Assembly (NCBI GenBank): GCA_963662405.2
Contig: CAXXKT010000001.1
Location: forward strand, 1,056,001-1,120,000
Source: Syntrophales bacterium
GTDB taxonomy: Bacteria; Desulfobacterota; Syntrophia; Syntrophales; UBA2210
Reading direction: 5' to 3'
Length of the DNA: 64,000 nucleotides
Shown: piece after piece, positions 24,954 through 29,519 of the stretch
How positions within the stretch are numbered: position 1 is the first letter of the stretch
How the letters are laid out: every line of letters begins with the position of its first letter
Notes under the pieces: generated by a model
Told to the model about the DNA's origin: nothing
Seen by the model: the letters and a program-made list of their open reading frames with translations, nothing else
Database searches by the model: none
Position numbers and translations under genes: made by a program

Positions 24954-26496
24954 ATGATCAAAACGGTTGAACAGTATCTGGAGAGCTTGAATGACGGCAG
25001 GGAGGTGTGGTGCCTCGGGGAACGAGTTGCCGATGTCCGGACCCACCCGACGATCAGCACCATCATCAGGATGGCCGCTATGGACTATGTCCTGCCGAAC
25101 CATCCCGATTACCGGGATATCTTCGTGACACAGGACGAGGACGGTGAGGACATCAATTTTCTCCTCACCTCGCCGAAGTCCTCGGAAGACATGCTCCGAA
25201 GACGGGAGTGTTACATGGTCGGTATGCGATCGGGCGGGGGCGTCCTGGTGCACTGCATGGGTGCCGATGCGCTGGCCTCTTTCAGCGTGGCCGCCGAGGT
25301 GATGGACAAGAAACTGGGGACCGGGTACGTCGAGCGTGTCGAGCAGTACCGCCGGCATCTCCAGAAAAACGATCTTGCCCTGACCGGCGCCATTACCGAT
25401 GTGAAGGGTGACCGGAGCCTGCACCCCTCACAGCAGAAACAGCACCAGGACTTTTATCTGCGGGTCGTGGATCGTCAGAAGGATGGTATTATCGTTCGGG
25501 GGGCCAAGGTCCACATCAGCGCCTCTCCTTGCGCCAATGAACTCCTCTGTCTCCCCTGCCGGACCCATGGCGAGGCGGATCAGGATTATGCCCTTGCCTT
25601 TGCCGTTCCCGTCAATACCCCAGGGGTAAAGCTCCTGGCTGTGGAGCCGAATGTCCGCCTCTACGGCGAGGAATGCGAATTCGACTATCCTATGTCTGAC
25701 CACCTGCAGCCATCGGAATCGCTGGTTGTATTCGATGACGTATTCGTTCCCTGGGAACGGGTCTTCATGTGCGGTGAATGGCAGTACTCGCAGGTCCTGG
25801 GCCTATGCCTTTGCCAGCTATCACCGCCTCTTCGGCACTTGCAAGATGACGAGTACCCTCGAGACGATGACCGGCGCGGCGAGTCTGATCGCCGAATACA
25901 ACGGGGTCAGGAACGTGCCGCACGTGCGGAAGAAGCTGGCCTGGATGGCCTATATTACCGAAACGGTGCAGATGCTGGCCAAGCAGGCCTGTCTCGACCC
26001 GGTGACCGAGTTCGGCATGGACGTCATGATGCCCAACCGGATGGCCATCAACGCGTCGAAGTTCACCTATGCGAGCAACTTTCACCAGATGGTCCAGAAC
26101 ATGCAGGACATCGGGGGGGGGTTGACCACCACCGTGCCGGCCTTCCGGGATTGGAACAATCCAGAGCTGCAACCCTTTATCGAGAAATATCTGGGGGCGA
26201 AGGGTGATGTGTCGACGGAGGAACGGATCAGGATACTGCGTCTCATAAAGGATGTTACGGGAAACCACTGGGAGGTCGACACCATTCACGGCGAAGGTTC
26301 CATGGCCGCGCAGGAGATGTTCCTCTTCGGCAGCGCCAATTGGAGCAAACTCCACGCTGCGGCGCGGCGAGCAGCCCATATCGACGGGTGGCAGGATGAT
26401 TCCATTTATGGAAAGCTCCCTGTGCGGAGCGATTATGTCACCATGCCCGCTATCGATGAATCGTATGAGAGTATTGCTTCGACGGCTCAGAAGTAA
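24954..26496 (+). pseudogene. 4-hydroxybutyryl-CoA dehydratase / 4-hydroxyphenylacetate 3-hydroxylase family gene with a single frameshift
   Basis: N-half (YLESLNDGR, GAITDVKGDRS, IIVRGAKVHIS, VFDDVFVPWERVFMCGE) lies in ORF 24954; C-half (YHRLFGTCK, QDIGGG, YLGA, HGEGS) lies in ORF 25651. Removing one G at 25799-25801 (ctgGgcc) fuses them. Confidence 0.88.
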
Positions 26497-26539: not shown

Positions 26540-26600
26540 ACATCCAGATTATCTCCGGCGGTTCGCTCTATTTTTTATCGGATCCAGGGAGAAAAATGTC

Positions 26601-27235
26601 ATGATCAGGGCGATAGCACCGTATCTTGACGGCTTGAATGACGGGAGAGAGCTCTTCTGGTGTCCGGGAGAAAGGGGATCCGATGTCTTGGCTGCCTTTG
26701 CCGTTGCGGCCCAGGTCATGGACAAGGAACTGGAGACCGGGTATACGGGTCGTGTCAGGCAGTACCAGAAACCGCTCCGGGAAAAAGATCTGGCCATTAC
26801 GGCGCCATTACCGATGTGAAGGGGGATCGAAACCTCCATCCCTCGCAGCTGAAACAGCACCCGGATTACTCCCTTGCCAGCTATCATCGCCTCTTCAGTA
26901 CCTGCAGGATGATCGGAAAACTCGAAATCATCACGGGGGCGACAGCCCTCCTGGCCGAACACAACGGGGTGGAGCAGGTGAGTCCCGTCCGCAAGAAACT
27001 TGCGTGGATGGCCATCAATGCCGCGAAATACACCTATGCGAGCAATTTTTATCAGATGTGCCGGAACCTGCGGGATATCGCCGCGGTGCCGATCTTCCGA
27101 GGCTGGAGCGCCGAATGGCAGAAGTCCCGGCGACTGGGAGGAAGATCCGATATATGACATCCTCTCAACGCAAAAGGATCATCACGATCCTCCGATGCCC
27201 CCGGCCCTTCTCTCCGTCCCGGGGTTATTCAATGA
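26601..27235 (+). pseudogene. Heavily deleted paralog of the upstream dehydratase-family gene
   Basis: Colinear blocks YLDGLNDGRE / AVAAQVMDKELETGY / GAITDVKGDRNLHPSQ / ASYHRLFSTC / VRKKLAWMAINAAKYTYASNF / WEEDPIY spread across three frames. Confidence 0.85.
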
Positions 27236-27392: not shown

Positions 27393-27428
27393 TTGACTTA
27401 TCGCTCAAAGATTCCGTATACTACGGAA
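27393..27428 (+). promoter_or_regulatory. Candidate sigma70 promoter of the cytochrome operon with an overlapping inverted repeat
   Basis: TTGACT-N18-TATACT; TTCCGTA-tac-TACGGAA palindrome (27412-27428) spans the -10 box. Confidence 0.55.
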
Positions 27429-27494
27429 AACGTAACGTGCAGCGATTGTTACCTTTCTCCATCATCCGGTTGACCTTGTCCATAGGAGGCCGCC

Positions 27495-29519
27495 ATGAAG
27501 CCGAAGTTGGTATGTGGGGTAGCCGCAGTATTTCTTTCCATTGTCTTTTTCTGCTCCGTCACCGGAGCCGCCGTCTGGAACCACCGCGATGTAAAACTGA
27601 AAAACGAACGGGGAGAACAGATCGCGCCCGATCGGAACGGCGGTGATCCGTACAGTCCGCGCCGAACGTGCGGCGGTTGTCATCCCTATTCGACCATTAC
27701 CTCGGGGTTCCACTTCCAGCAGGGGTTTGACGCCATGAGCGACACCTACAACCCCTGGGAGCCGTGGATCCTGTCCCCGGGCATGTTCGGCAAGTGGTGA
27801 CCCCCCGCGAGCAGGTCTGGCCGTGTCGCCAGCAAAAACAACGATGACCCGAAGCAGATCGATCTGTCCACGTACGACTGGATCGGTGGCTATGGGAAAC
27901 TGAACCCCGCCAAGAAGATCAAATCGCCGTCCTGCGGCTGGTGCCATCCCGGCGGGGCCTCCATGGAATACGGGAGGAAGTGGGACGGTACCCCCGATTA
28001 TTCCATGAACCTTATCGAAGGGGAACGGCGTGCCGTGAACCCTCTCGACGGGGACTATTCGTCAAACCTGACTCCCGACGGCAAGAGTCATTTCAAGGAG
28101 AGCGGTGTCGTTGAGGCCGATTGTCTCCTCTGTCATATGAAGGGGTACAGTTTCGGCGCCCGTAATCAGCAGATCAACCGGAAGAACTATCGATGGGCCG
28201 CAACCGCCGGCGCCGGACTCGGAAATATCAAGGGCGCCATCTTCACCTTTGCCGACAAGGACGCGGGCCCGGGATCGAAGGAGTTTCTCACGGGGACCTG
28301 GAACTTTTCGGACCGTCCCGTCGTGAACTATAACTGGGACAATCGAAACCTCTTTACCCGTTCCGGTCGTCTGCGGGGTGAGGCGATAGCCAAAGAGGTC
28401 GAGACAAAGAGCTGTCTCCAGTGTCACCGGGGACCGGATGCGAAGAAGGTCGGCTGGGTCCATAAACCGGAATTCGATGCCCATTTCAAGGCGGGGCTTT
28501 GGTGCACCGACTGTCACAATCTGGTGGGAGAAACCGAAAAGGAGCGGTTGCACCATCAGATCGCCAAGGGGTGGCATCCCCTGGGGAGCGTGCGGAACGA
28601 TCTCGACGGTGTGGGGATGAAGACCTGCGCGGCGTGTCACCTGGAGGGGAAATACCGGGCCACCCGACCGGGGATGCCGGATGAGGCGAAAGATCCCACG
28701 AAGGTTCATGAGGAAAGATTCCCCGATGTCATGTTTCATTTCGATCTGATCAGCTGCGCCAATTGCCATTCCACGAGGCAACCGGCCATGTCGGGCTATC
28801 TCCTTGACATGGCGATGGGGAAACAGGTCTGGTACACGGCCGGGACACGGGAGGCCATCACCTGGAGTAATGATTTCGGTATCCTGACACCCGAACCCTG
28901 GGCCCCTTGGGTCACCCGGTATGACGCACGCAACGGTCTCGGAGAGCAGTACATCCCTGTTGTCCCCAAGATTGCCCAGTGGTTCGGCGAAAAGACGGAT
29001 CACATGGAGGTCCGGCCGATCATTCTGAAATATGTGAAAAAGGCGTACGGTGCGCTGAGCGCCCCCACTCTCGCGGCTGTCAAAGATGTCACCGGCAAGG
29101 CGGTCAAGCGCCCCACTATCGCGACGGATGCGCAGATCAAAGAGATGATCGAGTCACTTACAGAGATGGGGTTTCATAATGTGGTCTTCGTTTCCGATAA
29201 GATATACGAACTGAAGGACGGGACCGTGGTCTCCTACGAAGACCACCTCACGGCCCATCCCCATAACTTCCCCGTTCACCACAATATCGTCCCCATCGAC
29301 AGGGACGTGACATACGGATCGAGAGGAAAGCCTGACGGGTGTTACGACTGTCATTCCGATACGTCGACATTCTTCACCAGGATGCTGGTTCGAAATCCGG
29401 GGCGTTTCCTGGTTGAGGACTACCCGACCCCCAAAGAGCCGAATGCGGAGCCTCAGATGTATCAATGGGGGTTTAAAGAGGTGCCGATACCCGATGAAAT
29501 TACGGACGGCAAAAAATAG
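27495..29519 (+). CDS. Exported octaheme cytochrome c with in-frame TGA (putative selenocysteine at residue 102), 674 aa
   Basis: AGGAGG RBS and signal peptide. ORFs 27495-27800 and 27963-29519 are in frame and the 54 codons between them are open and contain CGWCH. Eight CxxCH motifs in total; SECIS-like hairpin follows the TGA. Confidence 0.85.
27815..27833 (+). promoter_or_regulatory. Candidate bacterial SECIS element
   Basis: G-(bulged T)-CTGGC-[CGTGTC]-GCCAG-C; the loop begins 21 nt after the TGA and has G-T at loop positions 2-3. Confidence 0.6.

Follow-up and report, generated by a model that had tools for sequence, protein, structure and literature searches.

The octaheme cytochrome c OTR of Shewanella oneidensis (PDB 1SP3; TIGR04315) contains seven bis-His hemes and a Lys-ligated heme 2, which is the catalytic one, and MmcA (TIGR04314), a heptaheme electron conduit of Methanosarcina built on an OTR-related scaffold, is described in the same source as devoid of both heme 2 and this Lys (PMC11024163). 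MccSep/ExtKL (GSU2937-2936; NF040886), the polysulfide reductase of Geobacter sulfurreducens, reduces polysulfide with a selenocysteine (Sec) adjacent to a heme and is inactive on nitrite and arsenite (PMC13510729). In the sections searched of a selenoproteome review, the only selenoprotein families of CxxCH type that are named are ExtKL, a GSU2204-type family and OTR, a Sec-type OTR being listed as annotated in GenBank (WP_331457571.1) (PMC13188914). Since multiheme selenoenzymes (MccSep) and Sec-type OTRs are thus already on record, the cytochrome discussed here is only a moderate surprise.

We analyzed a window of 64,000 nucleotides from a Syntrophales bacterium (assembly GCA_963662405.2, contig CAXXKT010000001.1), in which an earlier note had proposed a hidden Sec-containing octaheme cytochrome c. 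Positions are counted from the first letter of the window, and the features are collected in Table 1.

Table 1. Features of the cytochrome locus and of the two genes downstream
Feature	Position	Strand	Properties or basis
Sigma-70-like promoter candidate	27393..27422	+	Consensus match alone (10/12 matches, 18-nt spacer); the promoter search found 6 candidate sites, 3.6 being expected from shuffles
Ribosome-binding site GGAGG	27486..27490	+	Before ATG 27495
Octaheme cytochrome c, very probably Sec-containing	27495..29519	+	674 aa, OTR-like fold; ~78 kDa for the 8-heme form after removal of 25 residues
Probable signal peptide, residues 1 to ~25	27495..27569	+	Predicted from hydropathy and from a helix at 3-22 in the AlphaFold2 model
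In-frame TGA, very probably Sec102	27798..27800	+	Homolog alignment
bSECIS-like hairpin CTGGC-CGTGTC-GCCAG	27817..27832	+	Stem of 5 bp; loop of 6 nt that contains GU and lies 21 nt 3' of the TGA
Lys114, candidate OTR-type heme 2 ligand or anion-binding residue	27834..27836	+	Conservation; weak alignment to OTR Gly-Lys
Heme 2 motif CGWCH, putative active-site heme	27933..27947	+	No other CxxCH is degenerate among close homologs
Exported tandem rhodanese, 254 aa	29494..30258	+	Overlaps the cytochrome stop; Cys loop confined to domain 1
CbcL-like protein, 634 aa	30259..32163	+	9 CxxCH and a membrane domain resembling cytochrome b; leader followed by six hydrophobic segments

Evidence for a single gene across an in-frame TGA

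The mechanical ORF list splits the cytochrome gene into ORFs of 101 and 518 aa separated by a 54-codon gap, and the TGA at 27798-27800 is the sole in-frame stop between ATG 27495 and TAG 29517-29519. Reading through it yields the 674-aa protein with eight CxxCH motifs that the earlier note had described (at residues 59, 147, 210, 307, 337, 378, 421 and 616), and the second motif, CGWCH, indeed falls within the gap. The best 12-residue Kyte-Doolittle mean reaches 2.88 at the N terminus of the 101-aa ORF versus -0.28 for the 518-aa ORF, which has no hydrophobic leader and no GGAG-type site 5' of its ATG; the earlier view that the downstream start lacks a ribosome-binding site and a signal peptide is thus borne out. 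Given the stop frequency of the window, a gap of 54 codons would be open with p ~0.24, so that the open gap is by itself unremarkable and the one-gene case therefore rests on homologs. Many of the proteins among the 120 matches listed, of 472, are single ORFs of ~665 aa that span 94-99% of the read-through protein, and the closest homologs among these 120 are pieces of 512-553 aa. As judged from these sequence comparisons, it is homology, not the length of the gap, that excludes a chance read-through frame. Almost certainly, the two adjacent ORFs form a single exported cytochrome with eight hemes, in which the internal stop codes for Sec. The diagnostic peptide proposed earlier, GKWUPPASR, should read WUPPASR, because trypsin cuts after Lys100.

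Conservation of TGA at codon 102 and the Sec machinery

A TGA exactly at codon 102 is present in 26 of the 32 loci examined when the window's own is counted (25 of 31 without it) and in 4 more close relatives. Varied stop codons among homologs were said in the earlier note to speak against Sec; every stop seen in homolog matches is a TGA, and always at codon 102, in many families of the phylum. In 138 aligned rows, U occurs 13 times and Cys 15 times at column 102 (one Cys being probably a frameshifted artefact), with conservation on both sides of the column as the earlier note had anticipated, and Sec forms are under-counted in these rows because protein databases truncate them. The residues that would have pointed to a simple nonsense mutation or sequencing error are absent (Trp) or rare (Arg in 2 rows, Gly in 1), His or Met occurs in a few rows, and a reading of the TGA as Trp was rejected since no row has Trp. 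Not all homologs retain Sec102: Leu, Gln or Ser, which characterize a large clade, occupy the column in 60 of the 97 rows whose heme 2 motif is intact, and the role suggested earlier, that of a catalytic residue or axial ligand, is therefore retained as a conditional proposal.

A homolog is present in 81 of the 401 genomes of a phylum sample. Of 251 genomes from the order, 78 have one, with TGA in 6 of the 78 and no TGA in 72, and the closest labelled relative is an uncultured Syntrophaceae bacterium (86% identity). In a quick tree, with long branches, a midpoint root, a few labels possibly off by one and P0155 left out, Sec occurs in several deep branches, and a 23-row group without Sec or Cys is nested among Sec/Cys forms (support 94), which suggests that Sec/Cys was lost in this group.

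The genome carries all the genes that the earlier note had listed for inspection, namely, tRNA-Sec (selC), selA, selB and selD, as well as four formate-dehydrogenase-type genes with one TGA and cytochrome c assembly genes. In the assembly, selD is frameshifted by one extra base (G000:C3:552135-553065; L003, place 1942), and the gene is whole in 17 of 20 relatives. Since the extra base is absent from the contigs of three sequencing runs (X1, X3 and X8), two of which come from one sample that is possibly the assembly's own source and the third from another study, we take the frameshift as an assembly error; a broken Sec machinery was rejected on the same grounds. The recurrent TGA, the Cys rows and the complete set of Sec genes support the earlier assignment of residue 102, and we infer that the TGA is very probably decoded as Sec.

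A bSECIS-like hairpin with frozen codons

The bSECIS model given in the Fig. 2 legend of PMC13188914 comprises a loop of 3-9 nt, a stem of 4-16 bp, a G in the first two loop positions, a distance of 16-37 nt from the UGA and an energy of at most -7.5 kcal/mol. The window hairpin fits this model narrowly (5 bp, CGTGTC, 21 nt, -7.7 kcal/mol); it begins 17 nt 3' of the TGA, and the energy is that of the enforced structure, which is not the minimum-energy fold of the region. Equally stable hairpins arose in 47 of 300 synonymous recodings of the window sequence; at three distant loci, the native hairpin was matched in stability by 0, 0 and 1 of 300 recodings. The generic model is weak because it is passed by 16 of 31 non-TGA loci, versus 25 of 29 TGA loci, whereas a hairpin with GU in the loop, a criterion chosen after seeing the data, is found in 28 of 29 TGA loci versus 2 of 31 non-TGA loci; these loci, 60 parsed out of 64, are related and not independent.

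The codons 3' of the TGA are a stronger sign of a SECIS than the generic model. They are frozen as CAG-TTG in 21/21 TGA loci of the Gln-Leu-Ala type and as GGC-CGT-nnn-GCC in 8/8 of the Gly-Arg-x-Ala type. The same codons occur in 3/5 and 4/9, respectively, of the non-TGA loci with those peptides, where they may be relics or reflect simple kinship. Among eight close loci, one of the five stem pairs shows a two-sided change.

Relationship to OTR, MccSep/ExtKL and MmcA

The AlphaFold2 model of the 674-aa protein has a pLDDT of 87, the Sec loop being the region of lowest confidence both here and in the fragment model described below. A Foldseek search with this model returned OTR (1SP3, E 7e-5) as the sole match below 0.001, and superposition on 1SP3 gave Z 10.5 with an rmsd of 4.5 over 330 residues, the next match reaching Z 2.8. 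Pfam and NCBIfam (June 2026) gave only generic multiheme matches for the read-through protein, as did a PDB search with alignment A2; a sequence search of the PDB gave no match for the protein and none under E 0.08 for alignment A1. OTR and the window protein have a fold in common over the whole length, eight identically ordered CxxCH motifs (that of heme 8 a long way downstream of the others), seven spare His and a Sec or Cys between hemes 1 and 2, and the heme 1-3 region aligns by profile. In contrast, the structural identity is 17%, OTR has ~440 aa versus 674 aa here, and the hairpin sequences are different. The Sec/Cys of OTR lies in NNF[C/U], 10 residues before heme 2, whereas Sec102 lies in GKWUPP, 45 residues before heme 2, after heme 1 and outside any CxxCH, as the earlier note had placed it.

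The window protein does not match the TIGR04315 HMM at E 0.01 (cut-off 375 bits), and this module scores at most 54 bits in its relatives; the matches of distant members to TIGR04315 and TIGR04314 fall far short of the cut-offs, and TIGR04314 (cut-off 250 bits) has no match anywhere in this genome. Local hhalign of A1 against OTRs aligned hemes 1-3 and hemes 4-7 but not the Sec column, and global hhalign gave no alignment. Among true OTRs of the phylum, 18 of 41 over-cut-off matches have a TGA; in 11 of 25 fetched loci, it stands in place of the NNFC Cys, which aligns with residue 64 of 1SP3. Most of the TGA-bearing canonical OTRs (L056-L080, L145) share a downstream WCRCTSCH together with an invariant stretch of DNA that may be their SECIS.

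The window family is thus very probably an uncatalogued selenoprotein family, a distant relative of or sister to OTR. It has no NCBIfam (June 2026) family match, and no description was found in the literature searched, which covered few subscription papers. The earlier idea of a distinct and poorly described family stands insofar as no catalogued family matches, but the family is not free-standing, its fold making it a relative of OTR.

Like the window protein, MccSep is a periplasmic multiheme cytochrome c with an in-frame UGA and a SECIS, with its gene split by annotation and with Sec outside any CxxCH, and by analogy a similar working mode is proposed below. MccSep differs in that it binds five hemes, its Sec325 belongs to a C-terminal Ig-like domain (DGUP), and it uses a separate Cys heme ligand (PMC13510729). 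Membership in ExtKL/MccSep was rejected, in agreement with the earlier note: there is no NF040886 match, the protein has eight versus five hemes with Sec after heme 1, and its Cys residues are confined to the leader and the heme motifs. With no spare Cys, the Sec-plus-Cys chemistry of MccSep cannot be copied exactly. MccSep was absent from the fold-search matches and may not be in the libraries searched. As for MmcA, whose scaffold is OTR-related like that of the window protein, the loss of the heme 2 motif is shared with some branches of the family, the distant members of which show weak HMM matches, whereas the window protein keeps heme 2. A distant seven-heme branch (the P0203-P0267 group), without Sec/Cys and without the heme 2 motif (FGRH-type), parallels MmcA.

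Heme 2 as the likely active site

Seven non-motif His are invariant (residues 30, 73, 330, 354, 405, 415 and 596), one short of the number for eight bis-His hemes, which leaves heme 2 as the likely active site. Heme 2, whose motif is the only one to degenerate among close homologs, would thus be a special site. Of the 97 rows whose heme 2 motif is intact, 95 retain Lys114, versus 11 of the 41 other rows, a difference confounded by clade; a low-confidence profile alignment pairs Lys114 with the Gly-Lys of OTR but does not pair U102 with the OTR Cys. In a model of fragment 96-430, residues 96-109 have a pLDDT below 50 and the superposition on 1SP3 (Z 3.4) has an implausible end range; it would place Lys100, not Lys114, near the OTR Lys, in this low-confidence stretch.

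The heme 2 motif is degenerate despite Sec in one homolog (L008/L037) and despite Cys in four rows, which loosens the link between Sec and heme 2, a link that is not absolute. The Sec-bearing homolog at L037:8561-11191 has CGWTH as its heme 2 motif and contains, between hemes 7 and 8, a subdomain of ~100 residues repeated three times over. Two 16-heme fusions (L046:218-4798 and L039:3032-7256) combine the Sec-type family module with a second OTR-like module that has a Cys between its own hemes 1 and 2.

A conserved cytochrome-rhodanese-CbcL module

Of the nine loci tested, eight have the cytochrome, rhodanese and CbcL genes one after another in this order, and the remaining locus breaks off within the cytochrome gene. 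The domain 1 loop of the rhodanese has two Cys four residues apart in all 6 of the closest Sec-type loci, the window included, and in domain 2 the catalytic position is occupied by Asp. The third protein resembles CbcL (GSU0274) by its described architecture, that is, nine CxxCH and six membrane segments with an FdnI-like cytochrome b domain (PMC6295460); here, it is tied to an octaheme cytochrome and a rhodanese. Three of these loci add an upstream multiheme cytochrome and rhodanese, both absent from this genome. The one Gln-type locus tested (L036) retains the rhodanese and CbcL, so that the module persists without Sec or Cys.

In more distant family members, the cytochrome is fused to a cytochrome b domain or has a second OTR-like module. 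The cytochrome b fusions are FdnI-like (L040, L041, L047, P0139 and P0171, by HMM in all but L041), and one of them scores above the cut-off for formate dehydrogenase gamma and might be mislabelled. Other family members adjoin arsenic-type, thioredoxin, TauE, DsrE or porin-like genes and not a rhodanese gene. Three of the loci (L049, L051 and L055) lie near genes for an arsenic-resistance-type permease, a low-molecular-weight (LMW) phosphatase, thioredoxin-like and porin-like (Alginate_exp) proteins, and their arsenic-type/porin-like surroundings suggest a second functional context.

Searches for dsrA and NrfD/PsrC gave no match in this 100% complete genome, which has four ORFs with at least three CxxCH, two of them in this operon. 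The other two are a CbcL-like ORF with 15 CxxCH and an ORF with 9 CxxCH (G000:C1:1217904-1220364 and 1553097-1555353). The region 5' of the cytochrome contains an HpaB-domain gene broken into overlapping frames (window 24954-26496), possibly by another indel error, and then, just before the cytochrome, a decayed partial HpaB copy (window 26541-27157). An HpaB-domain gene is also found upstream of the module in L037, and the genome has about eight paralogs.

Proposed function and alternative readings

By analogy with MccSep and OTR, we propose, with a probability of roughly 0.5, that the cytochrome is a periplasmic sulfur-compound reductase forming the catalytic end of the three-gene module. 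The CbcL-like protein would oxidize quinol and hand the electrons to the seven bis-His hemes of the cytochrome, through which they would reach heme 2, the heme without a spare His ligand. Sec102, on the loop between hemes 1 and 2, would attack the S-S bond of a polysulfide, persulfide or polythionate (or an Se-O bond), and the adduct would be reduced via heme 2, the exported rhodanese binding or delivering sulfane sulfur. In a protein with no spare Cys, this chemistry must differ from that of MccSep. The frame, the conservation of TGA/Cys, the Sec machinery, the fold, the number of His and the gene order are computed results; Sec incorporation, the role of heme 2, the proximity of Sec to it, the direction of the electrons and the substrate are proposals that go beyond them.

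A selenoenzyme with another substrate or direction is possible but has rather low odds: it could reduce nitrite, hydroxylamine or an arsenic or selenium oxyanion, or oxidize sulfur and feed the quinone pool. OTR reduces nitrite, hydroxylamine and tetrathionate (PMC11024163), CbcL-family proteins have been proposed to run both ways (PMC6295460), and some members sit among arsenic-resistance-type genes; yet the rhodanese, TauE and DsrE neighbors indicate sulfur, and the inactivity on nitrite and arsenite was reported for MccSep, the sole characterized multiheme selenoenzyme that we found (PMC13510729). It is unlikely that the protein is no enzyme at all but an electron conduit like MmcA, in which Sec102 would serve as an axial ligand of heme 2 (His/Sec or Lys/Sec) and tune its potential, the Leu, Gln, Ser and His variants then having, on the same doubtful footing, a different or open heme 2 site. 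Such a ligand would fit the single heme without a spare His, the His or Met found at column 102 in a few rows, the persistence of the module without Sec, the weak matches of distant members to the MmcA-family HMM and the native Sec-ligated heme described in P450s (PMC11703216). However, Lys114 is the better conserved candidate ligand, Leu, Gln and Ser, the commonest replacements, ligate poorly, and a Cys-bearing rhodanese is a constant neighbor in the closest loci.

We regard as very improbable that the TGA is a true stop, whether it separates two separately made subunits or marks a pseudogene or a sequencing error. Gene callers do split the gene, with 44 of the 267 database matches kept starting just 3' of codon 102 (some may be contig-edge fragments), the assembly contains at least one indel error, and the window's own hairpin is weak. 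Against this stand the stop itself, which is invariably TGA and identically placed across many families of the phylum, the heme 2 motif inside the gap, the second ORF without a leader and the uninterrupted homologs; furthermore, an indel error does not yield a codon-aligned TGA in 29 other loci. Returning to the sulfur-compound reductase, a bolder version, which we consider speculative, would have the OTR scaffold gain Sec at a second site, independently of the Sec-type OTRs, in a phylum-wide family with Sec102 bound to or facing the heme 2 iron. No report of a selenolate-ligated c-type heme was found in the literature searched.

Significance

The family is widespread in its phylum and yet often split by gene callers. 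With Sec, Cys and Leu/Gln/Ser versions of a single scaffold occurring in nature, it offers a testbed for the role of Sec at a heme, and it may reveal an electron outlet in syntroph-like anaerobes. On the bolder reading above, the cytochrome, together with the rhodanese and the CbcL-like protein, would provide a molybdenum-free, quinol-driven sulfur respiration to a Syntrophales-type bacterium in which no dsrA or NrfD/PsrC match was found.
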